Assembly (NCBI GenBank): GCA_030539115.1
Contig: JAUNSR010000007.1
Span: 14,929 to 78,928, forward strand
Length of the DNA: 64,000 bases
Source: Bacteroidales bacterium
Lineage (GTDB): Bacteria; Bacteroidota; Bacteroidia; Bacteroidales; JAUNSR01
Direction: 5' to 3'
Shown here one piece after another: positions 4,312 to 62,484 of this stretch. The translations under genes and the position numbers were made by a program. The first letter of the stretch is position 1, and every line of letters begins with the position of its first letter. The notes beneath the pieces are model-generated. The model made no database searches. It was given only the letters and a program-made list of their open reading frames with translations, and was not told the DNA's origin.

Positions 4312-4842
4312 ATGAAGATTGTTGTTCTTACAGGAAGCTCACGAAAAAAAGGTAATTCCAATTATTTGGCCGAGCAGTTTATCAAAGGTGCAAAGGATTC
4401 CGGTCATGAAGTATTCGCTTTCGATTGTGCTAAACAGAAATTTTCTCCTTGTTTGGCTTGTGATCATTGTGGTATAAATGGTGACTGTGCCATTAAAGAT
4501 GATTTTACGCTCATTCTTCGACCTCAGATAGAGCAGGCAAATATGGTTGTTTTTGCATCGCCAATCTATTATTTTGGATTATCTGCTCAATTGAAAATGG
4601 CTATCGACCGCTTTTATGCCCTTAACAGTAAAATGTACAGTAAGAAGAGTGCCCTCCTTGTAGCTATGGCTGATACTGCGGATGCTACAGGAAGTTATGC
4701 TGTGGACTATTACAAAGCTCTTGTTGGATATTTGAAATGGAAAGATGAAGGGATTATCGTTGCAAAAGGATTATGGAATGCCGGCGCTGTTGTCGGTACT
4801 TCCTATGCTGAGAAATCGTATTCTTTGGGTCGTAATATTTAG
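4312..4842 (+). CDS. NADPH-dependent FMN reductase / iron-sulfur flavoprotein-like flavodoxin-fold protein
   Basis: MKIVVLTGSSRKKGNSNYLA start and the CLACDHCGINGDC cysteine cluster, typical of Isf-like flavoproteins. Confidence 0.7.
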   Translation: MKIVVLTGSSRKKGNSNYLAEQFIKGAKDSGHEVFAFDCAKQKFSPCLACDHCGINGDCAIKDDFTLILRPQIEQANMVVFASPIYYFGLSAQLKMAIDRFYALNSKMYSKKSALLVAMADTADATGSYAVDYYKALVGYLKWKDEGIIVAKGLWNAGAVVGTSYAEKSYSLGRNI

Positions 4843-4854
4843 ATAGTAAAAATT

Positions 4855-5052
4855 ATGCCAGTCATTAAATTGGAACTTATAAAAATGAGTAAGGAAACAA
4901 AATCTAAACTCGTTAAGGAAGTAACAGATGTTGTTGCTCGCAATACGGGATTGCCGATACAATCTTTTTATGTTTTTATCACAGAGAATGAATCTGATAA
5001 CGTAGGAATAGGAGGCACATTGCTTTCCGACATCCATATAAATAGCAAGTAA
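4855..5052 (+). CDS. 4-oxalocrotonate tautomerase family protein
   Basis: 65 aa starting MPVIKLEL (catalytic Pro1 after Met removal). Size and pattern fit the tautomerase family. Confidence 0.7.
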   Translation: MPVIKLELIKMSKETKSKLVKEVTDVVARNTGLPIQSFYVFITENESDNVGIGGTLLSDIHINSK

Positions 5053-7285: not shown

Positions 7286-7667
7286 ATTGATTAGCGATTA
7301 TTGGAATAGGATTATTTTCTAATTTCCTTTTTATCTTTAGAAATAATAATCCCATTAGAATTGGATTTTGCTATTTCTCTGTTTAAGATATATGTGTTAG
7401 CTCCACTTTCAAAATGTTTTTCTTCACTGAGTAAATTTCAATTGTGGAAGTTTCATGATATAAGCAGATGCTCAAACCAATACTCTCATCGGTCACGAAT
7501 TATTTGATAGCGTAGCAAATCGTTGCAACATGTAGAAATCAAGACTGTCGTCAAATCATTAGCAAATTTTCAAGGCAAATTCATAAGTCGCTTATTTTTT
7601 TAATAATTCGTTCAATAGGTAAAATAAAAAATGAGTTATATAAAGCTATGTAACTCAAAACTATTAG

Positions 7668-7751
7668 TACGAAGGAGGAGATTCGAACTCCCACACCGCA
7701 ACCGGCACTACCCCCTCAAAGTAGCATGTCTACCTATTCCATCACCTTCGC
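7668..7751 (-). tRNA. tRNA-Leu (anticodon GAG), class II with long variable arm
   Basis: Reverse complement is GCGAAGGTGATGGAATAGGTAGACATGCTACTTTGAGGGGGTAGTGCCGGTTGCGGTGTGGGAGTTCGAATCTCCTCCTTCGTA. Anticodon stem is CTACT/GGTAG and the loop is TTGAGGG. Predicted G1-U72 wobble. No encoded CCA. Confidence 0.85.
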
Positions 7752-7765
7752 AAATTAAATAAAAG

Positions 7766-7849
7766 TACCCAAAACAGGGCTCGAACCTGCACATCCTTTC
7801 GGACACTAGTACCTGAAACTAGCGCGTCTACCTATTTCGCCACTTGGGC
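7766..7849 (-). tRNA. tRNA-Leu (anticodon CAG), class II
   Basis: Reverse complement is GCCCAAGTGGCGAAATAGGTAGACGCGCTAGTTTCAGGTACTAGTGTCCGAAAGGATGTGCAGGTTCGAGCCCTGTTTTGGGTA. Anticodon stem is CTAGT/ACTAG and the loop is TTCAGGT. It also has G-U pairs in the acceptor stem. Confidence 0.85.
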
Positions 7850-7895: not shown

Positions 7896-8306
7896 TAATT
7901 AATTGAAAGACCATTATTTAACAAAGGGAATAGGTAAGTGATTTATAAAAGTCATACAAAAACTCTTTTTGCAGGCTTTCAAAATGATATATCTATCGAT
8001 TTGTTTTACAAATATAAATCAAGTTTTACTATAAAAGCAAGAATATTCTTCTTTTTATAGACAATACTTATGAGATAAATACCTGAAGTATTTAAAAGTT
8101 AAATGCGAATAGGCTTATTTAAATAAAAATTTTTAGTATATATTTTATTTTAATTGTACCATAAATTTATGCATTTTCTCAAATGCAGATTATTATCTCT
8201 TTTTTTGTTATTTATTGTGGTTGGTTTATAAAGAAATAGTCAATTTCCAACCTATTTCCAAGCCATTTGTTAAGTTAATATAAGCTGAATGATAAATTAT
8301 AAACAA

Positions 8307-8402
8307 ATAAAACCGTCATAGCTTATCCAATAACATATGCCATATAAAAGGTATTTAAATGGCGCATTTGCATCTCGGTGTTAAAAATAGATTATATAGA
8401 TG
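8307..8402 (+). repeat. AFSR repeat copy A (diverged); its 3' ATG is the start codon of the phosphatase gene
   Basis: ATAAAACCGTCATAG...AAAAGGTATTTAAATGGCGCATTTGCATCTCGGTGTTAAAAATAGATTATATAG-ATG aligns to the family consensus. Confidence 0.7.
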
Positions 8403-9701
8403 AAAAGCAGGTTTATAACAATAATAACTTTAATTCTCCTTCTTATGTTGTCGGCATGCAATGAAAAAGATTTAAGAATGAATGGAACTGATATGCCTTA
8501 TGTTTATAAAGAACAGAAATATACACCGGCACCTGAAAGTTTCGTGCCTTTTTATATAAACTTTGTTTGCAGACATGGTTCCCGTTATCCAATAGAATCC
8601 AAATATATTGATGAATTGATTGAGGTTTTATCAGATGCTGAAAAAAAATCAATGATAACTCTTACAGGATCTCAACTAAAGACTTCATTAGAGCATATAA
8701 TTAATAAATTTAATAATAAATGGGGCCTTTTAAGTCATGTAGGTGTTGCCGAGATACAAGGAATTGCTTCAAGAATGATTAAAAACTATATTCATGTTTT
8801 TGATGAAGCTATATACGTGCAAAGCGATTCCGCTGAAAGATGTGTAAAAACTATGGATGCGTTTATTGATGTATTTAAAAATAAAAAAGACAGTATTAAA
8901 ATCAACACTGAAATTGTAAAGAAAGACAATGTAGTATTGAATTTTTTTGATGTTAATTTAGAATATCTGAAATTTAAGAAACATGGAACATGGAAAAACA
9001 TATATAATAGTTATTCAGACTCGATTTTGGGAAATACTCGGTTATTATATAAGTTCTTTCTTCCAGAGTATGTAAGTACCATAAACAAAGCCCCTCAGTT
9101 TCTTCATGCCCTTTTTAAAATAAATGCAATACTACCTAACACAGATGAAAAGATTTCACTAAAAGACTTCTTTACAGGTGAAGAGGAATATTTATTATGG
9201 AATACTCAGAATGTTAAGGAATATATGGAAAAAGGACCTTGGCCGGGAGAGTATGGTCTTCAGACAGACATTTCTTTCCCGTTATTAGAAGATTTTCTGA
9301 TTACTTCATATAATTCCATTGTTGATGGTGGAGTCAGTGCAGACTTTAGATTTGCGCATGCTGAAACAATCATACCATTTGCAGCTTTTCTTGATATTAA
9401 CATTGCTTCTGCCAAAACTATGGATATTAATAATGTAAGCAATGTTTGGAAAGATTTTGAGATAGCTCCTATGGCTGCAAATATTATGTGGATTTTTTAT
9501 AGCAATAATGATGGAGAGATAATTGTAAAAATGCTGCTTAATGAAAAAGAGGTTAGCTTTCCTGTTAATTCAAATATAACGCCTTATGCTCATTGGGAGG
9601 ATATTCAAAAATATTATCAAAACAAACTTGATGCTCTTTCTGTAATTCCATCATTATCTACTGAGGCTAAACTTAAATATTTTAAAGAATATAAAAAATA
9701 A
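8400..9701 (+). CDS. histidine acid phosphatase, MINPP-like (putative phytase), lipoprotein
   Basis: Signal and lipobox LLLMLSAC. RHGSRYP catalytic motif (FVCRHGSRYP) and HAE (FAHAETIIP) in place of HD, as in multiple-inositol-polyphosphate phosphatases. Confidence 0.75.
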   Translation: MKSRFITIITLILLLMLSACNEKDLRMNGTDMPYVYKEQKYTPAPESFVPFYINFVCRHGSRYPIESKYIDELIEVLSDAEKKSMITLTGSQLKTSLEHIINKFNNKWGLLSHVGVAEIQGIASRMIKNYIHVFDEAIYVQSDSAERCVKTMDAFIDVFKNKKDSIKINTEIVKKDNVVLNFFDVNLEYLKFKKHGTWKNIYNSYSDSILGNTRLLYKFFLPEYVSTINKAPQFLHALFKINAILPNTDEKISLKDFFTGEEEYLLWNTQNVKEYMEKGPWPGEYGLQTDISFPLLEDFLITSYNSIVDGGVSADFRFAHAETIIPFAAFLDINIASAKTMDINNVSNVWKDFEIAPMAANIMWIFYSNNDGEIIVKMLLNEKEVSFPVNSNITPYAHWEDIQKYYQNKLDALSVIPSLSTEAKLKYFKEYKK

Positions 9702-14675: not shown

Positions 14676-14753
14676 CTATATCTTAAATAAAGGTATATAA
14701 ATGGCGCATTTGTACCTTAGAGGTAACGGTTATAAAAAAATTATATATAAATG
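14652..14753 (+). repeat. AFSR repeat copy B in the trkH-trkA spacer; its 3' ATG is the trkA start codon
   Basis: 14685-14753 (AAATAAAGGTATATAAATGGCGCATTTGTACCTTAGAGGTAACGGTTATAAAAAAATTATATATAA-ATG) is near-identical to copy F. The 5' part overlaps the trkH stop and is only weakly alignable. Confidence 0.75.
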
Positions 14754-15440
14754 AAATTCATAATTATTGGTTTAGGTAATTTAGGCTATACAATGGCCAA
14801 GTTACTTACAGAACAGGGAGATGAAGTTATTGGTGTTGATTCAAATCTTTCAAGAGTTGAAGAATATAAAAATGATATGTCCAGCACAATTTGTATGGAC
14901 GTCAGTGAATTTCATGCCTTAAGTTCTTTGCCTATTAAAGAAGTTGATGTCGTAATTGTTGCTATAGGTGATGTGTTGAGCACTTCAATAGAAGCTGTCG
15001 CCTATGTAAAACAATTGGGAGCTAAAAGAATCTTTGCGAGAACAAATTCAAGAGTTGAAACTGCCATTCTTGAAGCTATTGGAATAGACTGCATTATGAA
15101 GCCAAGTGAATTTGCTGCTGAAATGTATAGTTTTGATGTTAGCTCTTCAAAGATTGAAGCTCTTTTTCCTGTTGATGACTCCTATCGTATTTATGAATTC
15201 AAAGCTCCAAAGGTCTTTTTGGGCAATAATATAGAATCTTTAAAGCTTGAAGATAATTTCAAGATGAAGCTTGTTTCTGTTTTGCGCCCCACATTCCAAT
15301 TGAATATGTTTGGAAATAAAAACAATGTATTAAAGGTTATATCCGACATCTCTCCACAAACAATTATTAATGAGGGTGACGTTTTAGTTGTTTTTGGCCG
15401 AAAAGAAGATTTTGCAAAAATGAAGAAACTTATATCTTAA
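14751..15440 (+). CDS. trkA: TrkA/KtrA potassium uptake protein, NAD-binding subunit
   Basis: MKFIIIGLGNLGYTMAKLL Rossmann GxGxxG at the N-terminus and a C-terminal TrkA_C-like region. Confidence 0.85.
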   Translation: MKFIIIGLGNLGYTMAKLLTEQGDEVIGVDSNLSRVEEYKNDMSSTICMDVSEFHALSSLPIKEVDVVIVAIGDVLSTSIEAVAYVKQLGAKRIFARTNSRVETAILEAIGIDCIMKPSEFAAEMYSFDVSSSKIEALFPVDDSYRIYEFKAPKVFLGNNIESLKLEDNFKMKLVSVLRPTFQLNMFGNKNNVLKVISDISPQTIINEGDVLVVFGRKEDFAKMKKLIS

Positions 15441-22749: not shown

Positions 22750-24165
22750 ATGAGACCCTTTATAATAAGCTTAATATCATTATTTTCATTTATATCTACA
22801 AATTTATACTGTGAAATTATTGTTGAAGGCAATGAAACCTCAATATTTAATAGAAAGAATAAAGACTCTGATTTTAGAAATTTCTATGGTATAACATGGA
22901 ATGGCAAAGCGTCCGATAATTTGAAGTTTGCTAAGCAAATGGGGTATGATTATATTTTCTACTCCTATGGCATGGAGAATGAAACAGAGGCTCATGATAT
23001 ATATTTTTATCTTGAATCGCCTGAATATATGACATATACACGAAAGGTGGATAGAAGAAAAGCTTATACTAAAGAGGAGCAAGAAAAAATCTCTGAGTTT
23101 TGTGCTTTAAAGGATGCCTCACTGCCTTTCCCTGATAATTTAGCATCAGGATGGACCACTGAATCACAATCGTTTACAGTATTGCCAGATTTTCAGCAGC
23201 AAAAGGTTATAGATGTTGTTGTGGAAAAAATAATAGAACGGATAAAAGAGATAGAACGTCCCAACAAGAATTTCCTTTTTGGCGGCATTGCCTGGGATGT
23301 GCCTCAATTGGAGGGCGATTTCTACGATAAAGCTCAGGCTCTTGGAGGGAAACAAATAACTCTTAGCTTTTGGCGTGGAGAGGATAGTGGTGATATATGT
23401 CCGGGCACAGTTCATGATTATAATACTTACAGCGATGGCAGAGCAATGTTCTACAAGACACTATATAAGAGAGTTAAGGATTTATATCCAAATGCAAAAT
23501 TTATGGTTGAGCCATGGCATATTTATAACGATTGGATTGAGGATATGCAAAAACGGAATGATGCAAAAGAGTTGATGCCAGATTTAGTATTGCAGGAGGG
23601 ACCATGGACAGATTTTGTTACCGATAATAAAAATTTCTCTTCCGGATTGGTTGACTATAACAATATCGGCTGCACAACACCCAATGTGTATAGTGAAGAG
23701 AAAAACAGGGAAATTGCTGCCATGGCAGCTGTTCATGGAGCCATCTTTGGCTGGTTTGGAAGATTTGGAGGCACAGGAGAAATGCCTGCCTATAAAAATG
23801 TATTTGATGTTCCGGCTTGGCTTTTATTAGTTAGAGCCATCTGTGGATGGGAAAATAAGAACAAAACTCCTCTTAACAAACGCAAATGGGTGGATGGCAT
23901 TTATTCTTCACCAACTGCATATATTTCAGATGATGTAATATATGCAAAACAACCAAATACAGATAGAATATTTGTTGTTTTTAATAAAAGTAATTCAAAA
24001 GCTCCATTCTATTTATTTAAAAAGGGAATGAAAGTCTTTTCTTCAGACAATATGTTGATTGAGAATGGTGTTTCAACCGATGATGTTTTAATCTCAAATA
24101 ATATTATTACTCTTGTTAATGAGAATAAGATTGGAAAGGCATTTATAATCAAGAAGGCAAAATAA
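22750..24165 (+). CDS. hypothetical secreted protein (function unknown; possibly carbohydrate-active)
   Basis: 471-aa ORF with signal peptide MRPFIISLISLFSFISTNLYC. No motif I can assign. Confidence 0.4.
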   Translation: MRPFIISLISLFSFISTNLYCEIIVEGNETSIFNRKNKDSDFRNFYGITWNGKASDNLKFAKQMGYDYIFYSYGMENETEAHDIYFYLESPEYMTYTRKVDRRKAYTKEEQEKISEFCALKDASLPFPDNLASGWTTESQSFTVLPDFQQQKVIDVVVEKIIERIKEIERPNKNFLFGGIAWDVPQLEGDFYDKAQALGGKQITLSFWRGEDSGDICPGTVHDYNTYSDGRAMFYKTLYKRVKDLYPNAKFMVEPWHIYNDWIEDMQKRNDAKELMPDLVLQEGPWTDFVTDNKNFSSGLVDYNNIGCTTPNVYSEEKNREIAAMAAVHGAIFGWFGRFGGTGEMPAYKNVFDVPAWLLLVRAICGWENKNKTPLNKRKWVDGIYSSPTAYISDDVIYAKQPNTDRIFVVFNKSNSKAPFYLFKKGMKVFSSDNMLIENGVSTDDVLISNNIITLVNENKIGKAFIIKKAK

Positions 24166-39814: not shown

Positions 39815-40582
39815 TCAATATTCAGAAGGATAAGGAAAATTTCGTTCTGCAAAACCAACCTTTATTAATTCTACTACATCATGAGGAAGTTTCTCCATGT
39901 TAGTAAAAGTAAGTTGATCTTGTTTTGGAGAGCAAGGGAGGTATGCCCATCTCTCAATAATAAGCTGCCAAGGAATATCTATTTCAGGATATGGATTTTG
40001 CTTTTTATCCTCTTTATTGCTTTCGTAGTCTCTTTTATCCTCTTTTGCATCTGTGGTTTCTTCAAGGTCATCTTGAATATTTACACCATCTTTAATAAAG
40101 GATGTAGTGTATCTGTCAGAAATTACTATATCAATTTTGTTTGTTGTCTCAAAATACCAGCATATATCAATGATAGATTCGAGTATTAACTTTTCACAAA
40201 CATAAATTTTAGGGTCAATAATCTCCAATTGTTTTAGATTTTCCTTACAAACACTGAACCAAGAGTAAAAATATTTCAGAAATGTTTTAACTCTAAAAAG
40301 AAACTTTTGATATTCTTTAGTTTGAGTGTCAGAAGGAATATCCCATTTAAAAATAATATTATCATAAACTCCCCATCTTCTAAGCGCTATTGCCCAACCT
40401 TCAAAAGAATCCTTATTATTGAGTTTTTTTAGAATTAGATTTGAGGTGTATGTATATTTTACATTGACACCATCTATTTCAAAAACAGCCTCTTCAGGAA
40501 GGTCGGTATAACTGTAATAATCTGTTTTCTTATGATATTCATGTTGTAGGGTCTCTAACACCTGAATATTGTTGTTCTTCAT
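39815..40582 (-). CDS. hypothetical protein (no recognisable domain)
   Basis: 255-aa ORF 39 nt upstream of the cupin gene on the same strand. It has an acidic, Lys-rich central linker. Confidence 0.4.
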   Translation of the reverse strand: MKNNNIQVLETLQHEYHKKTDYYSYTDLPEEAVFEIDGVNVKYTYTSNLILKKLNNKDSFEGWAIALRRWGVYDNIIFKWDIPSDTQTKEYQKFLFRVKTFLKYFYSWFSVCKENLKQLEIIDPKIYVCEKLILESIIDICWYFETTNKIDIVISDRYTTSFIKDGVNIQDDLEETTDAKEDKRDYESNKEDKKQNPYPEIDIPWQLIIERWAYLPCSPKQDQLTFTNMEKLPHDVVELIKVGFAERNFPYPSEY

Positions 40583-43167: not shown

Positions 43168-43467
43168 TTAAGCCGATTCTATATCAGATGCTATTTTTAG
43201 AATCTTCATGATTCTAACATCCTTAAGTGAATAATAGGCGTTTCTTCCATCTCTTTCAAGAGATAAAAGTCCCTTAGAATGCATATCTAAAACATGATGT
43301 GAAACCAACGGTTGAGCAAATCCCGTTTTTTCAGAAATATCGCCTACAGATAGGCGTTTGCATTTAGATAAAAGATTTATGATTATTATCCTATTAGGAT
43401 GACTCATGGCACGTAATGTCTGAGACATTATTTCCACATTTTCCGAAGAATTATTATTTATTGCCAT
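43168..43467 (-). CDS. ArsR/SmtB-family transcriptional regulator
   Basis: LRAMSHPNRIIIINLL...VGDISEKTGFAQPLVSHHVLDMHSKGLL winged-helix pattern. Confidence 0.8.
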   Translation of the reverse strand: MAINNNSSENVEIMSQTLRAMSHPNRIIIINLLSKCKRLSVGDISEKTGFAQPLVSHHVLDMHSKGLLSLERDGRNAYYSLKDVRIMKILKIASDIESA

Positions 43468-43642: not shown

Positions 43643-43785
43643 ATCTATTTAGTAAGTAATTATATATTTGATATTGTTTAAACATGATATTATGATATTA
43701 GCTTAAGATAAACTATCATTTGAAATAATGATATTAGCTTAAGATAAATCAAACATGATATAATGATGTTAGCTTAAGATAAACC
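43643..43785. repeat. iteron-like array: three 35/36-bp tandem units with ATGATATTAGCTTAAGATAAA core plus one inverted degenerate box
   Basis: Units start at 43692, 43728 and 43763, with CTTAAG at 43702, 43738 and 43773. A degenerate opposite-orientation box ATCTATTTAGTAAGTAATT is at 43643-43661. Confidence 0.8.
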
Positions 43786-43806
43786 ATACGCGATTATATA
43801 AAACAA

Positions 43807-43892: not shown

Positions 43893-44486
43893 TTATTCTA
43901 TTGTCTCAACAATTTTATCAATATAAAGAGTGCCATCCAAATGGTCTATTTCATGTTGAAAAATAATAGCAGTAAAGCCGTTAATTGTTTCCTGTTTTAT
44001 TTGCTTGTCGTTATCTAAATACTCAATCTTTACAGAAGCGTATCTAATAACATCGCCTTTTTTGTCGGGCACAGACAAACAACCCTCTGTACTTACAACA
44101 GTTGAATCTGAATGAGCAACAATAACAGGATTAATATAAAATTCAAAAGGATTATCCTCTTTGTCAAATCTTTGAACGGCAATTAATTTTCTTAATATTC
44201 CAACTTGTGGAGCAGCTATTCCAACACCAGGATGTTCAGGATTTTTTACTGTGGCAAGCATTTTGGATTTTAATTTTTCAAGAGTCAAATCTTTAATCTC
44301 GTCTTTATTGAAAGAATTGGATTTTTCCCTTAAAAGTTCGTTTTCCTGCTCATTGTCATACGTGTAAAGATTTAGAATCAAATTTTCAGAATTGATAATA
44401 GCTAATTCCTGAGGAGTAAATATTTTGTTTTGAGATGTACAACTTATAATCATAAGAGAAATAATAAAAATTAAAGGGTTCTTCAT
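43893..44486 (-). CDS. def: peptide deformylase with N-terminal lipoprotein-type signal peptide
   Basis: PDF motifs GVGIAAPQVG, EGCLS and HEIDH. N-terminus is MKNPLIFIISLMIISC, followed by an extension of about 60 aa. Confidence 0.8.
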   Translation of the reverse strand: MKNPLIFIISLMIISCTSQNKIFTPQELAIINSENLILNLYTYDNEQENELLREKSNSFNKDEIKDLTLEKLKSKMLATVKNPEHPGVGIAAPQVGILRKLIAVQRFDKEDNPFEFYINPVIVAHSDSTVVSTEGCLSVPDKKGDVIRYASVKIEYLDNDKQIKQETINGFTAIIFQHEIDHLDGTLYIDKIVETIE

Positions 44487-47491: not shown

Positions 47492-47595
47492 TTTAAAACG
47501 CCATAACTCACTAAAAGTTGAGATACCCAACAAAAGGTATATTAATGGCGCATTTGTACCTTAGTGTAAAAAATTAAATTATATATAAATTAAAA
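47492..47595 (+). repeat. AFSR repeat copy C (both flanking ATG-type heptamers read TTAAAA)
   Basis: TTTAAAA-CGCCATAACTCACTAAAAGTTGAGATACCCAACAAAAGGTATATTAATGGCGCATTTGTACCTTAGTG..ATTATATATAA-ATTAAAA. It ends 43 nt upstream of the ATG at 47638. Confidence 0.8.
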
Positions 47596-47637
47596 AGGCT
47601 TCTGAACATATTTAAACATAAAATAAAAGCAACTACT

Positions 47638-49642: not shown

Positions 49643-49801
49643 AATTGTAATTTTTTACAAACTTAACCAGAAAAGTTAATTATAAATAGATTTTAGTGTT
49701 TAAATAAAAACGCAATAACTCTCTTAAAGTTGCAATAGTTAAGTAAAAGTAAATTTATGACCCATTTAAGCTTTTGCTAAATTAATAGTTGGACATTATT
49801 A

Positions 49802-50121
49802 TTCATTTGTATATTATTTATTTTCCTAACCATAACTTCTAAGGTGCAAATGCGCCATTTATATACCTTTTGTAAGGTATCTCACCTTTAAGTGAGTTAT
49901 GGCGATTTCATTTGTATATTATTTATTTTCCTAACCATAACTTCTAAGGTACAAATGCGCCATTTATATACCTTTTGTAAGGTATCTCAACTTTAGGTGA
50001 TTTATGGCGATTTCATTTGTATATTATTTATTTTTCTAACCATAACTTCTAAGGTACAAATGCGCCATTTATATACCTTTTGTAAGGTAACTCAACTTTA
50101 GGTGATTTATGGCGATTTCAA
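49802..50121 (-). repeat. AFSR tandem array D: three units of exactly 105 bp
   Basis: TTCATTTGTATATTATTTATTTT starts at 49802, 49907 and 50012. Units are more than 90% identical. The array lies 160 bp upstream of the ASCH gene. Confidence 0.95.
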
Positions 50122-50774: not shown

Positions 50775-50834
50775 TTATAACCGTGTTTATAATAACTCAA
50801 ACTATATATAATAACATAATGATTTTTTATTTGG

Positions 50835-50920
50835 TTTCATTTGTATATATTTTAATTTTTAACACCGAGGTACAATTACACCATTTATATACCTTTTGTT
50901 GGGTATCTTGGCGGTTTTAT
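50835..50920 (-). repeat. AFSR repeat copy E (degenerate, hairpin 1 deleted)
   Basis: In element orientation it reads ATAAAACCGCCAAGATACCCAACAAAAGGTATATAAATGGTGTAATTGTACCTCGGTGTTAAAAATTAAAATATATACAA-ATGAAAC. Confidence 0.65.
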
Positions 50921-50930
50921 TTCAAAAGCT

Positions 50931-52235
50931 TTAATTATCGACTCTTGTGCCGTCACTTTTAATCCAAATGGGAATAGAAGGATCAATACAAGTAACAGGA
51001 AAACGAAGTGTAGTGTCGTAAATAGTCTGCATAAAGTTTGGAGCATATGTAAGACGTTCCTCTTTTGAACACATTTGTTTCTGTGCATCATTTTTACTTG
51101 TAACATTTTGTCCGTTACCTTTTGCCCAGAATGGCTTTTTGGGAGTATTGGCATGATAGAAACCATCCTGTTCAAAACTCATGATATTATAATCTATACT
51201 TCCATACCATTGGCCAGGAACTTTTTCTGTTGCTAAATTACCACCGATAGCAAAATAATTAGGATAATGCTCCATATTGAAATTAATAATTACTACAGGT
51301 TGACGACCGGTATTATCTCCAAAAAGAGGGTAGTTGGCAGAAGCTTCATCACAACAGTTTATTAATGTTATAGGATGAACCCATACACCGCTTGTAAGAG
51401 GATAACAATTGAAAGTAAATCCATACCTGCAAAATACTGAACCAAGATTTGTGCCGTAATAATGTTCTCCTCCAACAGCAAATCCAACTCCAAAAGAGGT
51501 GCAATCAACATATTCGATATTAAATTCCAAACAATTGTTTGAACCCTGAACTCCTCTAACGCCGATACATCCCTCAACACCTAAATGTGGAGTGCTGTTA
51601 ATATCATATCTGTTTTTATCACTGCCTTGCAGGGCACAATGCATTACACGTATTGATTCAAACATAATTCCATCAATACAGACAATATTTTTTTGGTTAT
51701 ACGGAAGAACAATAGCAATGTATCTGAAATCCAAATGAGTTTTTCTGTTTTTCAAACTGCGAATGACTGCATATTGTTGAGTGGAATCCAAGTTGTCATA
51801 ACAGGATTTAGAAACTGTAAATAAAACTCCATTATATTTAAAATCAAGAGGATTGTCACCTAAATGAATATCAATGCTGTTGCAGTCAAAACCTATTAAT
51901 CTGATTTTTGAGTGGACATCATCTTCTCCGGGAATGCCAAGAGCATAGAATGGAGTCCCATCGGTGGTCTCTTGAAAATGATCGAAAATATATACACCTG
52001 CCAAAAATTGAATCTCGCCATAACTGCCCAAGCTGTTAATGGCATTTTGAATTGTTTTTTCATCATTTTTGCCGGTGCATACGATGTCTGCCGATGACTT
52101 GTCGGCATTTGAAGAATTTACTGCTGCTATAACAATTTTATGACATTCTTTAAATAGTTTTTGTTCATCCTTTTGTGAAAATGCAGCAATGTTCACACAG
52201 AATAGGAATAAAATAAGGCTTTCGAGTGTTTTCAT
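50931..52235 (-). CDS. hypothetical secreted protein, possibly right-handed beta-helix (pectate-lyase-fold) protein
   Basis: I place the start at MKTLESLILFLFCVNIAAFSQ (52235). The track's 14-aa N-terminal extension runs into repeat copy F. ..DIVCTGKNDEKTIQNAINSL..GEIQFLAGVY resembles Pectate_lyase_3 N-termini. Confidence 0.45.
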   Translation of the reverse strand: MKTLESLILFLFCVNIAAFSQKDEQKLFKECHKIVIAAVNSSNADKSSADIVCTGKNDEKTIQNAINSLGSYGEIQFLAGVYIFDHFQETTDGTPFYALGIPGEDDVHSKIRLIGFDCNSIDIHLGDNPLDFKYNGVLFTVSKSCYDNLDSTQQYAVIRSLKNRKTHLDFRYIAIVLPYNQKNIVCIDGIMFESIRVMHCALQGSDKNRYDINSTPHLGVEGCIGVRGVQGSNNCLEFNIEYVDCTSFGVGFAVGGEHYYGTNLGSVFCRYGFTFNCYPLTSGVWVHPITLINCCDEASANYPLFGDNTGRQPVVIINFNMEHYPNYFAIGGNLATEKVPGQWYGSIDYNIMSFEQDGFYHANTPKKPFWAKGNGQNVTSKNDAQKQMCSKEERLTYAPNFMQTIYDTTLRFPVTCIDPSIPIWIKSDGTRVDN

Positions 52236-52257
52236 GACTTCTGTAAAGTGTTTGTAT

Positions 52258-52365
52258 ATGAAATCGCCATAACTCACCTAAAGCTGAGATACCCAACTAA
52301 AGGTATATAAATGGCGCATTTGTACCTTAGAGGTAACGGTTAAAAAAAATATATATATACAAATG
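52258..52365 (+). repeat. AFSR repeat copy F (solo, full-length 105-nt unit with ATGAAA at both ends)
   Basis: ATGAAATCGCCATAA-CTCACCTAAAGCTGAG-ATACCCAACTAAAGGTATATAAATGGCGCATTTGTACCTTAGAGGTAACGGTTAAAAAAAATATATATATACAA-ATG. No gene follows it directly. Confidence 0.9.
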
Positions 52366-52541
52366 AAAGAAATAGACAAAAATAATCTCTTTTAGTTTAT
52401 TTCTTGATAATCATTACAATATAATATCAAAGAAAGGAATAAATTTCTTAGTAAAATGATTTTTATGCAAATTCTTATTTATTTGTTTATTTTATGACAA
52501 TAAACCTTCATTATTTAATTTTGATTGTCATTATTATAATA

Positions 52542-52676
52542 TGTCTTAAGTAACATAAATGTGTAACTTAAGTATGTTTGCATACTATCTTAAGTAACAT
52601 ATTAAACTATCTTAAGTAATTTAAACATGTTATTTAAGTCGTACGTTAGTGTATCTTAAGTTGTTTAAATAAATTG
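52542..52676. repeat. iteron-like array: six CTTAAG-centred boxes at exact 22-bp phasing
   Basis: CTTAAG at 52545, 52567, 52589, 52611 and 52655, with TTTAAG at 52633. Conserved core (C)TATCTTAAGTAA with variable 10-12 nt between boxes. Confidence 0.9.
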
Positions 52677-53214: not shown

Positions 53215-53535
53215 ATGTCCAAAGAATATACTATCCGACAAGAGCAAATAGCCCGTTTTGCAAAGGCTTTAGGTCATCCGGCACGTATTGCAATATTGGA
53301 TTTTTTACTTAATCAGGAAACTTGCTATTTTGGAGATATTCATGATGAACTTCCCATATCAAAAGCTACCGTTTCCCAACATTTGAAGGAGTTGAAAGAG
53401 GCGGGTCTTATTCAAGGAGAGATAGAAACGCCCAAAGTAAAATATTGTATTAATAAGGAAAATTTAAAGCTGGCAAATACTTTGTTTGGAGAGCTTTTGG
53501 GAAAAGACTTACATAAAAAAGAAAATTGCTGTTAG
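53215..53535 (+). CDS. arsR: ArsR/SmtB-family metalloregulator
   Basis: [18 protein letters not shown]...[19 protein letters not shown], with a C-terminal CC pair. Confidence 0.85.
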
Positions 53536-54828: not shown

Positions 54829-54848
54829 AAATTGACTTAAAGATTAAA

Positions 54849-54947
54849 ATGGAAATGCCATAACTCAGCTAAAATTGAGATACACGGCAAAAGGTATATA
54901 AATGGCACATTTATACCGTGATGCTAATAATAAATTATATATAAATG
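54849..54947 (+). repeat. AFSR repeat copy G; its 3' ATG is the start codon of the PatB-like gene
   Basis: ATGGAAATGCCATAA-CTCAGCTAAAATTGAG-ATACACGGCAAAAGGTATATAAATGGCACATTTATACCGTGATGCTAATAATAAATTATATATAA-ATG. Confidence 0.85.
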
Positions 54948-56120
54948 GAGAACTACGATTTTAATAAATATATCGATAGAAAGAACAGTGATTGTGTAAA
55001 GTATGATGCATTGAAACAATTCTATGGAAGAGATGATTTGATTCCTCTTTGGGTTGCTGATATGGACTTTGAAACTCCTGACTTTATCATTGATGCCATC
55101 AAAAAAAGGCTTGAACATCCTATTTTAGGTTATCTTTCAATCCAGGATGGTTACTATCAAAGCATAATTGACTGGTGTGCAAAAATTCATAATTGGGATA
55201 TTAAAAAAGAATGGATTTCATACATTCCCGGCATTGTAAAGGGGGTAGGACTTGTATTGCAGGCTTTTACAAAGCCCGGTGACAAGGTTATTATTCAGCC
55301 TCCGGTTTATCATCCTTTCAGAATAGTTCCTGAATTAAATAAAAGAGAGATTGTTTGGAACAATCTTATATTTGAGAATGGGGAATACAAAATGGATTTT
55401 AAACAACTTGAATCTATAATCACTCCGGATTGTAAAGTTTTGATTCTTTGCAATCCTCATAATCCTGCCGGTATTGTTTGGGATAAAGAAACTCTTATTC
55501 AGCTCGCCAAGATTTGCAAAAAGCATAATATACTTGTCATATCTGACGAGATACATTCTGAAATGGTTCATAAAGGTTTTAAACATACCTCTTTTGCAAC
55601 ATCTTGTAAAGAGGCAGCTGAGAATAGCGTTACATTTATGGCACCATCAAAGACATTTAATATACCGGGGATTGTTAGTTCCTATTCCATTGTTCCCTCT
55701 GATACAATTAGAGAGAAGTTTTATTCTTTTCTTGAGGCTAATGAGTTTGGAGATTCAACGATTTTTGCAGTGACAGCGACAATTGCAGCATATGAAAAGG
55801 GTGAAGCTTGGCGTACTCAAATGATGGAATATGTTGAAGAGAACATCTCTTTTGTAAACGATTATATTTCAAATAATATTAAAGAAATAAAATGTTTTAT
55901 ACCTCAGGCATCCTATTTAATGTGGCTTGATTGCAGAGGATTAAATTTAAATCATGATGAACTTATAGACTTGTTTGTCGATAAAGCTCATTTGGCTTTA
56001 AATGATGGAACTATGTTTGGTCCAGGTGGAGAAGACTTTATGAGAATGAATTTAGGAGCTCCAAGAGTAATTTTAGAAAAAGCTTTAAAACAATTAAAAG
56101 ATGCAGTTTCAGGATTATAA
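54945..56120 (+). CDS. PatB/MalY-type cystathionine beta-lyase (class I/II aminotransferase)
   Basis: DRKNSDCVKYD...LIPLWVADMDFETP N-terminal signature and the SPSKTFNIPG PLP-lysine context. Confidence 0.85.
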   Translation: MENYDFNKYIDRKNSDCVKYDALKQFYGRDDLIPLWVADMDFETPDFIIDAIKKRLEHPILGYLSIQDGYYQSIIDWCAKIHNWDIKKEWISYIPGIVKGVGLVLQAFTKPGDKVIIQPPVYHPFRIVPELNKREIVWNNLIFENGEYKMDFKQLESIITPDCKVLILCNPHNPAGIVWDKETLIQLAKICKKHNILVISDEIHSEMVHKGFKHTSFATSCKEAAENSVTFMAPSKTFNIPGIVSSYSIVPSDTIREKFYSFLEANEFGDSTIFAVTATIAAYEKGEAWRTQMMEYVEENISFVNDYISNNIKEIKCFIPQASYLMWLDCRGLNLNHDELIDLFVDKAHLALNDGTMFGPGGEDFMRMNLGAPRVILEKALKQLKDAVSGL

Positions 56121-57031: not shown

Positions 57032-57928
57032 CTAATATTTAATAAGGTGAATTTTTTCACCACCGCTGTTATTTTCTTTATAGGTTTCAATTATGACATC
57101 TTTATTAAACCATGAGAAGAATTTCTCGGGATCACCTTTAAATATGCTTTTTATAAACATATCATCTTTGTTGTCGTAAGGTTTGTAATTATCTATTTCT
57201 GCTTTATTATAAAAGTCTTTTATGCTGTCATCTGAATCTTTATTAATTTTCTCTTCTATTAAAGAGACTGCCTTAAGGGGATAAAAGTCTTTATCTTCAA
57301 TAGGCCATATTTCATTTAGAGTTTTAATAATATTGCTTGCCAAAAGTCCGTTTTTAAATAAAAGTGTCTTTATGTCTCGTTCTTTTGTTTGGATATCTAC
57401 ATTTGGGTTTCTGAAATGATTGATTATTACATCAATTTCAAGATTAAAATTTCTAAAGGCTATATAAAGGTCATTGATATTTTTAAATTCAATGTCATTA
57501 CCATAAAAAACATCCACATGAATATTTTCCAAAGGAATGGTTAGCTTAATAAAATGCTCTTCGGAAGGATAAGCATCAAAATTAGCTTTTTCAAGCTTTG
57601 TTTTCATTGTATATGTTATTACCATATTTCTATATAGATGCTTGATAAGTTCCTCTAAAAGATTTTTTTGAGCTTCATTAGTTAGTTTTTTTGTGTTTTG
57701 TTCTGTGTTTGATTGAGATAAATATGTTTTTACAGCATAATAAACTGAAATAGCTGTTGCTGCTAATGCAATTATATCCCAAAGACTTAAAGCTTCAAAG
57801 AATCTAAAACTCGTATTCTCTGCTGTTTCATGAGTAAAGTCCTTAATAAAGTTTAAATGCTCGGATGTAATTGGTGAGTTTTCTTCCAATTGAATAAAAA
57901 GAATAGTTGAAAAAAAAGATAATCCCAT
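57032..57928 (-). CDS. hypothetical membrane-anchored protein (no recognisable domain)
   Basis: 298-aa monocistronic ORF with one clear TM helix (LSLWDIIALAATAISVYYAV) and a Lys/Asn/Asp-rich soluble domain. Confidence 0.4.
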   Translation of the reverse strand: MGLSFFSTILFIQLEENSPITSEHLNFIKDFTHETAENTSFRFFEALSLWDIIALAATAISVYYAVKTYLSQSNTEQNTKKLTNEAQKNLLEELIKHLYRNMVITYTMKTKLEKANFDAYPSEEHFIKLTIPLENIHVDVFYGNDIEFKNINDLYIAFRNFNLEIDVIINHFRNPNVDIQTKERDIKTLLFKNGLLASNIIKTLNEIWPIEDKDFYPLKAVSLIEEKINKDSDDSIKDFYNKAEIDNYKPYDNKDDMFIKSIFKGDPEKFFSWFNKDVIIETYKENNSGGEKIHLIKY

Positions 57929-60412: not shown

Positions 60413-60520
60413 TCTCAGAAATAAAAAACACAGAATAATATATAGATATATTTTTATTCAAAATAGTTAATTGTCATTTTTAGTGACATAAAATGATTTT
60501 AAAATAAAAACAATATATAA

Positions 60521-60711
60521 CTGCCATAGCTCACCTAAAGGTGAAATACCAAATAAAAGGTATATAAATGGCGCATTTGTACCTTAATGAAAATAATATA
60601 AAAATACACAAATGAAACCGCCATAACTCACCTAAAGGTGAAATACCAAATAAAAGGTATATAAATGGCGCATTTGTACCTTAATGAAAATAATATAAAA
60701 ATACACAAATG
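60521..60711 (+). repeat. AFSR tandem array H: two units of 97 bp; the second unit ends in the fucI start codon
   Basis: The ATGs at 60612 and 60709 are 97 bp apart. The units are identical except at their 5' ends (CTGCCATAGC versus CCGCCATAAC). Confidence 0.95.
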
Positions 60712-62484
60712 AAAAAACATCCTAAAATTGGTATTCGCCCTACAATAGATGGTCGTCAGGGTGCTCTTCAAGTAAGAGAATCTCTTGAAGAACAAACAAT
60801 GAATATGGCTAAATCTGCAGCTAAACTATTCACAGATAATTTAAAATATTCAGATGGTTCTCCAGTTGAAGTCGTAATTTCAGATACAACGATAGGTCGA
60901 GTTGGGGAAGCTGCAGCTTGTGCAGAAAAGTTTAGAAAAGAGGGAGTTGACATAACCTTAACTGTTACTCCTTGCTGGTGTTATGGCTCTGAAACAATGG
61001 ATATGGATAAATTGACAATAAAAGGAGTTTGGGGATTTAATGGAACCGAACGTCCCGGCGCTGTTTATCTTGCTGCTGTTCTTGCGGGGCATGCACAAAA
61101 AGGTCTTCCTGCTTTCGGTATTTATGGACATGATGTTCAAAATGCAGACGATACTTCTATTCCTAATGATGTGCAAGAGAAACTTCTTCGTTTTGGTAGA
61201 GCCGCCATTGCTGTTGCCCAAATGAGAGGACAATCTTATCTTCAGATTGGCTCTATTTGTATGGGGATTGCCGGTTCTATAATAAATCCGGAATTTATTG
61301 AAGAATATCTTGGTATGAGAGTTGAATCGGTTGATGAAGTTGAAATAATTCGTCGCATGACTGAAGGCATATATGATAAAGCCGAATTTGAAAAAGCATT
61401 GGCTTGGACAAAAGAAAAATGTAAAGAAGGTGTCGATAAGAATCCTATAGAATTGCAAAAATCTCCGGAACAAAAAGAGAAAAATTGGGAGTTTGTTGTA
61501 AAGATGATGATAATTATCAAAGATCTTATGCATGGAAATCCTGATCTTCCAAAGGGTTGTGAAGAGGAAAAAATAGGACATAATGCTATTGCTGCAGGTT
61601 TTCAAGGACAAAGACAATGGACAGACTTTTATCCCAATGCTGATTATCCCGAAGCTCTTTTAAACACTTCTTTTGATTGGAATGGAGCAAGAGAACCTTT
61701 TATTTTAGCAACAGAAAATGATACTCTTAATGGATTGGGTATGTTGTTTATGAAGCTACTTACCAATCGTGCTCAGATGTTTGCCGATGTTCGTACTTAT
61801 TGGAGTGGTGATGCTGTAAAGAAAGCAACAGGATATGAAATTGAGGGAAAAGCTAAAGAAGCTGACGGCTTTATTCACTTGATTAATTCAGGAGCTTGTT
61901 GTTTGGATGCTTGTGGAGAAGTAAAAGATGAAAATGGTAATGGTGTGATTAAACCATGGTATGAAATGACCAAGGATGATCAAAATAAAGTAATGGATTC
62001 TGTTGAATGGTGTGCTGCTGATTGTGGCTATTTTAGAGGTGCAGGTTATTCTTCAAGGTTTATTACAAGAGCAGAAATGCCGGCTACTATGATTCGTTTA
62101 AATCTTGTAAAAGGACTTGGCCCAGTTCTACAAATTGCTGAAGGATGGACCATTAATCTTCCGGATAATGTTTCTGATATTCTTTGGAAAAGAACTGATT
62201 ATACTTGGCCTTGTACTTGGTTCGCTCCTCGCATAACAGGAAAAGGCGCTTTTAAATCAGCTTATGATATGATGAATAATTGGGGCGCAAACCATGGCGC
62301 AATTAGTTACGGTCATATAGGAGCTGATTTAATTACTCTTTGTTCTATTCTTCGAATTCCCGTATGTATGCATAATATTGAAGAAAAAGATATTTTCCGT
62401 CCTGCTTCATGGAATGCTTTTGGAATGGATAAAGAGGGACAGGACTATCGTGCATGCAAAAATTATGGACCTTTATATAAATGA
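60709..62484 (+). CDS. fucI: L-fucose isomerase
   Basis: [35 protein letters not shown]... is collinear with E. coli FucI through the C-terminal ..[13 protein letters not shown]. Confidence 0.95.

Follow-up and report, generated by a model that had tools for sequence, protein, structure and literature searches.

The segment 54849-54951, in front of the patB gene, is best explained (with a probability of roughly three in four) as a copy of a small, non-coding insertion element of a Bacteroidales clade, which comprises about 90 bp plus a target duplication of 5-6 bp and has a fixed orientation. The sequence-only reading had taken the same segment for a leader-peptide or attenuator-like device with a four-codon upstream ORF ending in Pro-stop. 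Below, "window" means the whole 64-kb stretch of DNA that was analysed.

Using nhmmer, we found that the segment, here called copy G (match at 54848-54952, E = 5.7e-23), belongs to a family of repeats of about 95-105 nt. Twelve copies lie at nine places in the window, and together with 25 loci of four Bacteroidales MAGs there are 56 matches in total. The 22-nt core, AAGGTATATAAATGGCGCATTT, matches 11 times in the window with at most three mismatches, compared with 0.01 matches expected. Outside the window the family is present in at least seven other Bacteroidales assemblies (additional copies include those in the loci L058, L060 and L064), and its core does not vary among genomes whose GC content ranges from 32 to 47%. 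The window has no orthologous genes in common with the 25 MAG loci. All counts on structure and ORFs given below refer to 44 aligned copies, and the count of terminal ATGs refers to 36 loci. The copies in the window are the following:

54854-54944, plus strand: body of copy G, between two copies of ATGGA (nhmmer and alignments).
52256-52370, plus strand: copy F; its terminal ATG opens 10 codons only, and the divergent gene that starts at 52235 is 22 nt away.
60515-60716, plus strand: copies H1 and H2 in tandem with a period of 97; fucI starts at their terminal ATG (60709).
49799-50121, minus strand: copies D3-D2-D1 in tandem with a period of 105, located 157 nt upstream of the ATG of a 115-aa gene, in the spacer that separates this gene from mobA.
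50833-50913, minus strand: copy with P2 deleted and the core altered to ATGGTGTAATTG, between a 434-aa ORF and mobA.
47495-47601, plus strand: copy that has lost both ATGs (upstream TTT, terminal ATT), 37 nt upstream of a DUF1848 gene.
14689-14759, plus strand: 3' half only, from the foot of the long hairpin; trkA starts at its terminal ATG (14751).
8305-8411, plus strand: diverged copy with the orphan start mutated to ATA; a gene of the histidine phosphatase family begins at its terminal ATG (8400).
2635-2724, plus strand: heavily decayed copy in a divergent intergenic region (nhmmer, E = 1.2e-4).

Compared by eye, the left end of the element (ATCGCCATAAC...) and its right end (...AAATTATATACAA) are not inverted repeats. 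We did not find a transposase or recombinase in the 64-kb window, neither HUH nor Y1 nor any IS, and an autonomous partner of the element was not found either. This raises the question of which enzyme places an element of about 90 bp without terminal inverted repeats (TIRs) into ATGRA with a duplication of 5-6 bp. Searches of plasmids, phages and viral contigs gave no match to the repeat. When metagenome contigs were scanned with the pattern GATACC-N5-8-AAGGTATATAAAT, none of the 28 loci that were hit carried the element according to nhmmer, and we regard these hits as chance matches. With the covariance models of Rfam 15 at the gathering score, only two tRNAs and no repeat unit were found in the window; at E<=10 there was nothing meaningful on the repeat units, the best overlaps scoring 17-23 bits against thresholds of 40-55. 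Retroposition, which 5'-truncation had suggested, was rejected, as most short copies retain both ends and have internal deletions instead.

The insertion itself can be followed where orthologous sites with and without the element are available. At fucK, the loci L060, L063 and L057 are empty and read ...CACATT ATGAAA GACATC, that is, ATGAAA directly followed by GACATCGCG; the filled locus L058 carries 94 nt exactly after ATGAAA, with ATGAAA on both sides and flanks that are otherwise near-identical. At patB, L065 reads ...TAAAATGGAAAG (the uninterrupted site being ...AAATAAAATGGAAAGATAC) and L064 reads ...CACATGAAACAA, with the element in neither, while the window reads TAAAATGGAA joined to ATGCC...TAAATGGAG, the left flank before ATGCC being GATTAAAATGGAA. 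Copy G has the unusual, non-consensus pentamer ATGGA on both sides, and this pentamer equals the native patB start; therefore a duplication is indicated. Further filled and empty sites are seen at trkA (filled in the window, empty in L065, where the trkH-trkA spacer is 18 nt long and holds no copy), at the DUF2400 gene (filled in L064, empty in the window and in L065) and in the mobA spacer (three units in the window, none in the orthologous spacer of L064). The flanking pentamers are identical on the left and on the right in 33 of the 44 copies, which is informative as to duplication in G and L058 only, most copies having ATGAA on both sides under any mechanism. The elements of the patB site are these:

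54849-54853, plus strand: left copy of the duplicated target ATGGA, i.e. the original patB start codon and 2 nt of codon 2 (Glu).
54916-54944, plus strand: A/T-rich linker and new initiation region (...AATAATAAATTATATATAA), conserved in all copies, with no Shine-Dalgarno sequence.
54945-54949, plus strand: right copy of the duplicated target ATGGA, with the patB start now in use.

From the alignment of filled with empty sites we conclude that the element integrates into ATGRA, that is, into the start codon and the first two bases of codon 2, and that the pentamer is then found on both sides. The same comparison shows what becomes of the two pentamers: the left one retains the native upstream region and the ATG of the gene but now reads into the element, and the right one, preceded by the A/T-rich initiation region of the element (...AAATTATATAYAAATG), which has no Shine-Dalgarno sequence, becomes the working start of the gene. 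Target sites are recreated by each insertion, and the tandem arrays, including those of mixed subfamilies, fit this. In principle, the empty sites could also have arisen by precise deletion between the 6-bp repeats rather than never having been filled. L023 and L024 were at first taken for an empty and filled pair as well; this pair is ambiguous, as the "empty" site of L023 (...CAAAATAAAAGGTATG) resembles a deleted remnant. The closest PatB homologues, P0002 and P0003 (in L055 and L056), are not syntenic and have no element, and are informative for the N-terminus only.

In 29 of the 36 loci the terminal ATG of the repeat opens the downstream gene (an ORF of at least 100 codons or one running off the locus). 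In the case of copy G this is ORF 54945-56120, a PatB C-S lyase, and the N-termini of both patB and fucI align with their homologues from residue 1. The upstream flanks of single units end in TATG, as do ordinary gene starts of these genomes (T at position -1 in 50 of 100 controls), and the element itself ends in AATG. The genes headed by the element are unrelated in function, for example PatB, FucI, TrkA, a histidine phosphatase, FolD-like and NADH-oxidase-like proteins and many secreted or signal-peptide proteins. Genes are headed even by units from which the 5' half is missing entirely (14689-14759, L018 and L064), and before the fucI orthologues of several lineages the 3' initiation module alone is retained; such cases are natural experiments on what an initiation region needs in Bacteroidales. 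By eye, the Bacteroidetes promoter TTTG-N19-21-TAnnTTTG (-7 motif TAnnTTTG) is found on neither strand of the element consensus. The consensus does contain a sigma70-like TTGAGA-N16-TATAAA, which is absent from the copies with a deleted P2; promoters of this kind are not known to be used in Bacteroidetes.

The upstream ORFs described previously are indeed there. They read ATG GAA ATG CCA TAA in G, ATG AAA TCG CCA TAA in F (52258-52272) and ATG AAA CCG CCA TAA in H2 (60612-60626), and those of D1 and D2 lie on the minus strand at 49897-49911 and 50002-50016. The idea that they evolved as leader peptides does not survive the comparison with empty sites. Because filled and empty orthologous sites are found at fucK and patB, the ATG of the mini-ORF, together with its second codon, can be recognised as the original start of the gene, cut off by the insertion:

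54849-54863, plus strand: four-codon mini-ORF ATG GAA ATG CCA TAA, i.e. the orphaned native start, two codons of the element and the TAA of the element.

As the aligned sites show, the element contributes the two codons TCG CCA (ATG CCA in G) and the TAA, and the result is a mini-ORF of four codons (eight in TCA variants) whose end lies about 80 nt before the new ATG. Of the 44 aligned copies, 37 have this junction ORF, the ATG being lost in the other seven. Its stop has undergone eight changes to a sense codon and three to TAG, as expected under neutrality (2 in 9); its peptide is variable (MKSP, MKPP, MEMP, MISP, M-stop, MK-stop), and neither ATG nor stop nor peptide is conserved above the neighbouring positions in the 44 copies. 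Judged by this comparison, the mini-ORF was left behind as a scar of the insertion and is no purpose-built leader peptide. Its Pro-stop context is a by-product: CGCCAT is a strand of helix P1, and the TAA of the element comes next. In annotation and motif searches the element is likely to recur as an apparent leader peptide, attenuator or riboswitch before unrelated genes, and recognising it as an insertion scar should lead to fewer false regulatory calls; the element also accounts for mis-extended gene models.

Next, we consider the RNA that the element would encode. Its predicted pairings in copy G are the following:

54856-54861, plus strand: 5' strand of P1, TGCCAT (consensus CGCCAT), pairing with 54902-54907; it covers codons 3-4 and the first base of the stop.
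54864-54879, plus strand: hairpin P2, CTCA-gctaaaat-TGAG, in the predicted MFE structure.
54880-54897, plus strand: hairpin P3, ATACA-cggcaaaa-GGTAT, 95.7% paired across copies, with one-sided changes only.
54902-54907, plus strand: 3' strand of P1, ATGGCA (consensus ATGGCG), pairing with 54856-54861.
54908-54915, plus strand: anti-start strand CATTTATA, directly 3' of P1, pairing with 54940-54947 in the MFE structure.
54940-54947, plus strand: start strand TATAAATG, which contains the patB ATG (54945-54947), from alignment and fold.
54891-54918, plus strand: alternative long hairpin AAGGTATATAAATG-GCA-CATTTATACCGT, mutually exclusive with P3, P1 and the anti-start helix.

The three pairings that had been described as competing (CTCA/TGAG, ATAC(A)/GGTAT and AAGGTAT...ATACC(g)T enclosing AAATG-GCA-CATTT) are all present; however, they do not all compete. 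P2 (CTCACC/GGTGAG) competes with nothing, and among them the long hairpin alone has competitors, namely P3 and CGCCAT/ATGGCG. The three-way junction with the start helix is the MFE structure in all six copies that were folded (z from -1.3 to -4.6). Across the copies folded, the long hairpin lies 1.3-7.6 kcal/mol above the MFE; in G, it has -15.0 kcal/mol when forced, against -16.3 for the MFE. This "ON" state is 94% paired across copies and has no covariation support. P1 is nearly invariant (97.7% paired). P2 is 76% paired, its middle pair being mostly C.U, and is deleted in several copies (50833-50913, L018, L020 and L023); P3 has one A.G pair in G.

Covariation had been proposed as a check on these helices, and its outcome over the 44 aligned copies is divided. 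There is almost none in P1, P2 and P3, and P1 rests on one event in G: the change of both TGCCAT (54856-54861) and ATGGCA (54902-54907), noticed before, is real and is the sole double change in that helix. We rejected an indel shift as its origin, as TGCCAT differs from CGCCAT by a substitution once the ATGGA(A) duplication is set aside. The best comparative support belongs to a helix that had been overlooked, in which CATTTR (54908-54913 in G) pairs with YAAATG (54942-54947) and which includes the ATG of the gene. It is 98.5% paired, with pair counts of GC 25, AU 17, GU 2 and of UA 36, CG 4, UG 2; mutual information peaks within the unit at the former column pair (92/140), with 0.75 bit against 0.45 for the next partner. 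The helix has 27 double-change cells, compared with 11.0 +/- 3.2 in shuffled data (0 of 500 reach 27) and at most 9 in slid registers, a covariation that derives from about two subfamily-level events and not from many independent ones. With the start of the upstream mini-ORF, the anti-start strand pairs in 83% of cells only. An excess of G.U over A.C (15:2 in P1, P3 and the anti-start helix) was rejected as a sign of sense-strand pairing, because the variation in P1 and P3 is confined to one strand, whose composition explains the excess; that strand has 8 pair-keeping and 3 pair-breaking transition sites, and 10 of 25 changes keep pairing, compared with about 36% expected without selection. 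The predicted accessibility of the start codon is not lower in genes headed by the element (mean 0.55) than in 100 control genes (0.49, p = 0.10).

On these grounds we infer that the sense strand of the body would fold into a three-way junction of P1 (CGCCAT/ATGGCG), P2 and P3, and that the next six to eight bases 3' of P1 (CATTTRTA) would pair with the new start region (TAYAAATG), a pairing apparently preserved through compensatory changes between subfamilies. Such pairing may either tune translation at the new start or serve the propagation of the element. In the former case, ribosomes coming from the orphaned old start could melt P1, as proposed earlier from the overlap of the mini-ORF with the 5' strand of P1; the long hairpin would then be favoured and the new start freed. 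From the modelled folds, a ribosome-driven switch is possible. No selection is seen on the mini-ORF. If the start-codon helix or the orphan start does modulate translation, dozens of genes per genome would be under one post-transcriptional layer. One may speculate further, although we consider it rather unlikely, that the element is a mobile "translational relay" adapted to the SD-independent initiation of Bacteroidota, which would part a gene from its start codon and then bring expression back by means of a new initiation region and an RNA switch, or else that its internal stretch provides a nucleic-acid-guided recognition of the ends or of the ATG target. In a relay, orphan-start ribosomes would melt P1, the long hairpin would capture CATTTR and the new start would be released, so that the gene would retain its native translational control despite the insertion. 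In guided integration, the stretch complementary to both ends would reflect a so far undescribed recognition of ends or ATG target.

How, then, does the favoured explanation compare with the alternatives? The helices may serve the propagation of the element itself, the mRNA fold being incidental; this has a smaller chance of being right, though the largest among the rivals. In an intermediate of single-stranded DNA or RNA, an internal stretch of 12-14 nt (ATGGCG-CATTTGTA) could pair with both ends, CGCCAT on the left and TACAAATG on the right. Internal guide sequences play a similar part in IS200/IS605-type elements, where they recognise the ends. In line with such a role, the joined ends, TACAAATG-AAAT-CGCCAT, are complementary to the stretch, which forms one bulged helix with them in the MFE structure when the upstream unit matches (H2, L004, L010 and L024); the covariation is at the level of subfamilies, which would follow if spread were limited to master copies whose ends match, and the unchanged accessibility of the start points in the same direction. 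However, the ATGGA duplication flanking G is unexpected for an insertion of the IS200/IS605 type, and neither an HUH nor any other transposase was found in the window. Copies at gene starts that are old and partly deleted, moreover, mostly retain CATTTG complementary to the start (14689, L018, L060 and L064). The orthologues L016 and L018 have 100% identity in the 22-nt core but only 75.6% in the flanks, a difference which suggests a constraint on the core in place.

The purpose-built attenuator, with a selected ORF that stalls ribosomes at Pro-stop and thereby switches the fold and controls the gene, we regard as improbable. Part of its basis stands: the mini-ORF overlaps the 5' strand of P1 and is intact in most copies, alternative folds are possible, the gene start can pair, and P1 with the anti-start helix excludes a long hairpin that is nearly isoenergetic in G. 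Translation of an upstream ORF is also known to open a sequestered initiation region, e.g. in mgtQ/mgtB of Salmonella (PMC8092293). The origin of the mini-ORF start as the orphaned native start of each gene speaks against it, as do the free variation of ATG, stop and peptide, the genes headed by units that lack the 5' half (the fucI orthologues with the 3' module only included) and the want of any function common to the downstream genes that would suit one stalling signal. Least probable of all is a non-mobile cis-regulatory RNA, a riboswitch or protein-binding leader that defines a regulon, with the junction as aptamer and the anti-start strand as expression platform. The compact three-way junction, the high conservation of its junction and 3'-strand bases, the position of the anti-start strand directly 3' of P1, the invariance of the core over so wide a range of GC and the tandem occurrence known for some riboswitches would all suit it. 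Against this, we see orthologous sites filled and empty with a target duplication, subfamilies mixed within arrays, P2 and P3 often deleted with the gene fusion kept, unrelated downstream genes, no Rfam family even at the relaxed threshold and the near lack of covariation in P1, P2 and P3.

The closest known analogues of the insertion element are the mycobacterial MIRUs and Neisseria REP2, and the element may be seen as a counterpart of these rare start-codon repeats in a phylum without Shine-Dalgarno pairing. MIRUs are repeats of 40-100 bp, often in tandem and co-oriented with the flanking genes. They are reported as mobile units that enter start codons and affect the gene only minimally (PMC12548453); short direct repeats are described for them, as are sites with and without a unit (PMC3184786). 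Both traits recur here, in the filled and empty gene starts of fucK, patB, trkA and DUF2400 and in the direct repeats that flank the unit (ATGAAA in L058, ATGGA in G). However, the ORF of a MIRU runs through the unit and overlaps stop and start of the neighbouring genes, with a -4 coupling to the gene, whereas here the orphan ORF stops after four codons, about 80 nt short, and the element supplies its own initiation region without a Shine-Dalgarno sequence. Furthermore, MIRUs are G+C-rich and the present element is A/T-rich; the phylum is different, and a sequence relationship is not to be expected.

Neisseria REP2 and Borrelia IR-A/IR-B have no TIRs; two stem-loops are predicted inside them near the 5' end, they bring an RBS region with an ATG fused to the downstream ORF, and they sit immediately upstream of many genes (PMC3184786). 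The present element likewise has no TIRs, has P2 and P3 as predicted hairpins and a terminal ATG that is fused to an ORF at most loci. On the other hand, REP2 has a promoter and a Shine-Dalgarno sequence and marks a co-regulated set, while we see no Shine-Dalgarno sequence and, by eye, no -7 motif, and the genes headed by the element are not known to be regulated together; and the mode of spread of REP2 is unknown, while here there are empty sites and a duplication of the ATGRA target.

MITEs and further co-transcribed dispersed repeats such as Correia, ERIC, BOX and RUP are small, non-coding, multi-copy and intergenic; they are flanked by target duplications, have a predicted RNA structure and may affect the expression of genes nearby (PMC3184786). 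The element described here shares their size, non-coding nature, copy number, intergenic position, flanking duplication and predicted structure, but it is without TIRs and without a known parent IS, is strictly oriented with the downstream gene and is fused exactly to its start codon. The palindrome-associated elements derived from IS200/IS605 insert 3' of a fixed target without duplication, by means of a Y1 transposase; here, ATGGA on both sides of G points to a duplication, and no Y1 transposase was found in the window. Finally, there is a likeness to the erm and cat leaders and to mgtQ-mgtB, in that a short ORF overlaps a helix strand whose melting could free a sequestered start (PMC8092293 for mgtQ). 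Their ORFs, however, are gene-specific and conserved, with one signal each, whereas the ORF found here is an insertion scar before unrelated genes; it decays without restraint, and the gene fusion does not depend on it.

The repeat inserts at start codons. It enters at ATGRA, and this pentamer then flanks it on both sides; the native start, now orphaned, leads into a TAA encoded by the element, and the downstream gene is headed by the duplicated ATG and the 3' region of the element. Relatives for comparison (37-47% G+C, some syntenic with the window; loci designated by L-numbers) were found through a search for FucI homologues and genomic context. The empty fucK site in L060, L063 and L057 reads ...ACCACATT ATGAAA GACATCGCGATTG, and in L058 the same flanks hold a 94-nt insert exactly after ATGAAA, with a second ATGAAA at the end of the insert. 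The patB gene, which lies behind the unit at 54849-54951 (copy G), is without the element in L065 (...AAATAAAATGGAAAGATAC, Met-Glu-Arg-Tyr) and L064 (...GCACATGAAACAATAT). In the window one reads GATTAAAATGGAA|ATGCCATAAC... at the flank and ...TATATAAATGGAGAAC where the unit ends, so that the native patB start is the ATG GAA of the mini-ORF in copy G. The non-consensus pentamer ATGGA borders copy G on both sides, which, judged from the sequence, marks a target duplication of 5-6 bp.

Other sites differ in the same way: trkA has an 18-nt spacer in L065 versus a 3' partial unit in the window, the mobA spacer holds three units in the window but is free of them in L064, and DUF2400 has a decayed unit in L064 while it overlaps patB in the window and L065. 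The upstream flanks of single units end in TATG and in this resemble the ordinary gene starts of the genomes concerned (a T stands at -1 in 50 of 100 controls), unlike the element's own end, AATG. We found no transposase or recombinase gene within the 64-kb window and no terminal inverted repeats in the element. Between 12858 and 63916 many genes of the window are also present, in rearranged order, in L064 and L065 (ClpB, HtpG, def, MobA-like, PatB, DUF2400, M23 peptidase, MetH, TrkA/TrkH); the window patB comes after a permease of the ArsP type, and mobA is not divergent from it.

The 22-nt core, AAGGTATATAAATGGCGCATTT, has 11 matches in the window (at most 3 mismatches) against 0.01 expected, a profile search gives 12 copies at 9 places, and the exact core is also present in 25 stretches from four Bacteroidales MAG assemblies. 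Alignments of 41 and 44 copies both give the unit consensus ...TATAYAAATG AAATCGCCATAACTCACCTAAAGTTGAGATACCCAACAAAAGGTATATAAATGGCGCATTTGTACCTTAATGTTAAAAATTAAATTATATAYAAATG AAA.... Every copy lies in the same orientation as the downstream gene and, in 29 of the 36 loci whose last unit retains its terminal ATG, the reading frame that begins there has 100 codons or more or extends past the end of the locus. The genes headed by the element have no function in common. In the window we note:

2635-2724, decayed copy, read directly in the sequence
8400, start of a histidine-phosphatase-family gene, opened by the element's terminal ATG
14751, start of trkA, opened by the element's terminal ATG
54945, start of patB, opened by the element's terminal ATG
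60709, start of fucI, opened by the element's terminal ATG

The element matches no Rfam family, searches of plasmids, phages and viral contigs did not match it, and a metagenome scan gave chance matches only.

Units are single or form head-to-tail arrays of two or three. At array junctions the terminal ATG of one unit runs into the next as ATG AAA TCG CCA TAA, and the four-codon mini-ORF is thus a junction product. Subfamilies are mixed within arrays, which fits repeated insertion into a recreated target.

The sequence-only reading had seen in this mini-ORF, with its alternative helices, a leader-peptide or attenuator-like architecture. The mini-ORFs lie where it placed them (G, ATG GAA ATG CCA TAA, 54849-54863; F, ATG AAA TCG CCA TAA, 52258-52272, identical on the minus strand in D1 and D2; H2, ATG AAA CCG CCA TAA, 60612-60626), as do the jointly altered partners of CGCCAT/ATGGCG in copy G (TGCCAT, 54856-54861; ATGGCA, 54902-54907). 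Alternative folds are indeed predicted, as described below. However, the mini-ORF is a scar: across the 44 aligned copies we were not able to find any sign of selection on its start, stop or peptide. Its ATG is missing in 7 of 44 copies, all among the 34 first or single units, of which only 2 lack the terminal ATG. The TAA shows 8 changes to a sense codon and 3 to TAG, matching the neutral expectation of 2 in 9, and the peptide is variable, with a stop at codon 2 or 3 in two copies. Furthermore, units without the entire 5' half still head genes (14689-14759, L018, L064), and all fucI orthologues examined retain only the 3' module AAATTATATACARATG, the A/T-rich initiation region, before the start (more diverged in L057); body and mini-ORF are therefore dispensable for the gene, whereas the 3' initiation region, as far as these sequences indicate, is not. 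The first interpretation thus keeps partial support, with the attenuator reading mostly explained away. The Pro-stop context would follow from CGCCAT being the helix strand that adjoins the element's stop.

The fucI module without body (AAATTATATACA[A/G]ATG) is found at 9971-10007 in L058, at 9988-10003 in L057, and just upstream of fucI in L060 and L063, where the 3' end of the upstream MFS gene contains it. Such a module looks like a 'solo' remnant turned into the normal initiation region of fucI.

RNAalifold predicted two helices from the first alignment. P1 (CGCCAT/ATGGCG) is 97.7% paired and almost invariant, its sole double change being that of copy G. In the other, the anti-start helix, which had gone unnoticed in the sequence-only reading, the CATTTR that adjoins P1 on its 3' side pairs with YAAATG, the strand that includes the gene's ATG. 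It is 98.5% paired across copies and varies as CATTTG...CAAATG, CATTTA...TAAATG and CATCTG...CAGATG (GC 25, AU 17, GU 2 at one position; UA 36, CG 4, UG 2 at another). There are 27 double-change cells; shuffles give 11.0 +/- 3.2, with none of 500 reaching 27, and slid registers never exceed 9. This covariation derives from about two subfamily-level events. These columns are the unit's top mutual-information pair (0.75 bit, against 0.45 for the next partner). Complementarity of the CATTTR strand to the upstream, mini-ORF start is limited to 83% of cells, and in mixed arrays the strand tracks the downstream start.

Of the hairpins, P2 is 76% paired and often deleted, and pairing in P3 reaches 95.7%, all of its changes being one-sided; the alternative fold, the long hairpin AAGGTA..AAATG-GCG-CATTT..TACCTT, is 94% paired but indistinguishable from shuffles. 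An excess of G.U over A.C (15:2) was at first taken to speak for sense-strand pairing; we rejected this, since the variation in P1 and P3 is confined to one strand, whose composition favours pair-keeping transitions. Pair-keeping changes (10 of 25) are at about the neutral level. Columns 49/51 of the 44-copy alignment, in the P2 loop, have the second-highest mutual information (TAA-AG versus TAT-GG in three L022 copies), which probably reflects common descent within one array.

In the minimum-energy structure predicted for each of the six folded copies, P1, P2 and P3 form a three-way junction and CAUUUR pairs with a start region, namely the gene's own start in G, F, L013 and L058, and the upstream start wherever that matches (z-scores from -1.3, in G, to -4.6). 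A fold constrained to contain the long hairpin is 1.3 kcal/mol less stable in G, and the penalty reaches 7.6 kcal/mol among the other copies. Ensemble start accessibility is not lower for element-headed genes than for 100 controls (0.55 versus 0.49, p = 0.10), so any occlusion of the start would be weak.

Presumably only sense-oriented insertions survive, because only those would restore translation. The CATTTR/YAAATG pairing appears to be under selection and may tune the new start, possibly by a relay in which ribosomes from the orphan start melt P1 and the long hairpin captures CATTTR. On the other hand, an internal stretch complementary to both ends may be needed for propagation rather than tuning. 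Constraint acting in place is suggested by several sequence comparisons. In the orthologous loci L016 and L018 the element precedes the same gene, and the 22-nt cores are identical despite the loss of P2 from one copy; over 3.7 kb the flanks share 75.6% identity. The element is A/T-rich and nearly unchanged across genomes of 32 to 47% G+C (the window, 32%), and old partial copies mostly retain CATTTG complementary to their own start (14689, L018, L060, L064). Potentially, gene conversion or repeated insertion at one target could have preserved the cores instead. In L024 a decayed unit (4657-4718) and a second half-unit (4832-4883) lie about 113 nt apart with a terminator-like hairpin between them; the decayed unit gives the upstream gene its last 8 codons and stop (...EIAKPHLK*), while the L023 orthologue ends ...QL*.

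By analogy, the functionally closest known system is that of the mycobacterial MIRUs; according to a 2025 review these are mobile and enter at start codons, which couples an internal ORF to the gene (PMC12548453), and an earlier review notes short direct repeats as well as filled and empty sites (PMC3184786). Here, in contrast, the junction ORF ends after four codons, and an initiation region without a Shine-Dalgarno sequence comes with the element. Also close are REP2 of Neisseria and the IR elements of Borrelia, which lack terminal inverted repeats, carry two stem-loops internally and fuse a ribosome-binding site with an ATG to ORFs (PMC3184786); unlike REP2, our element is without a recognisable promoter and shows a visible target duplication. 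Given these likenesses and differences, we file it as a variant among start-codon-associated dispersed repeats, a member of neither the MIRU nor the REP2 family, and not as a leader-peptide attenuator. What replaces the attenuator is an undescribed start-codon-targeting Bacteroidales element with a covarying start-codon helix, which is worth follow-up.

The window has some further features. At 43680-43787 there are three direct repeats of about 36 nt (AAACATGATATTATGATATTAGCTTAAGATAAAC...), flanked by an ArsR-family gene (43168-43467, minus strand) and a peptide deformylase gene (43893-44486, minus strand). At 52544-52640 a partly palindromic motif of 31 nt occurs three times (TCTTAAGTAAC...GTAACTTAAGTA), after copy F and ahead of an ArsR/MarR-type regulator gene (53215-53535); these copies may represent operator sites. 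No Pfam match (E <= 1e-5) was obtained for the ORFs 22750-24165 (471 aa), 50931-52235 (minus, 434 aa), 57032-57928 (minus, 298 aa) and 39815-40582 (minus, 255 aa). Finally, an adjacent pair of tRNA-Leu genes (7667-7849, minus strand; anticodons GAG and CAG) is preceded by TTTG...TATATTGG, which comes close to the -33/-7 promoter consensus of Bacteroidetes.
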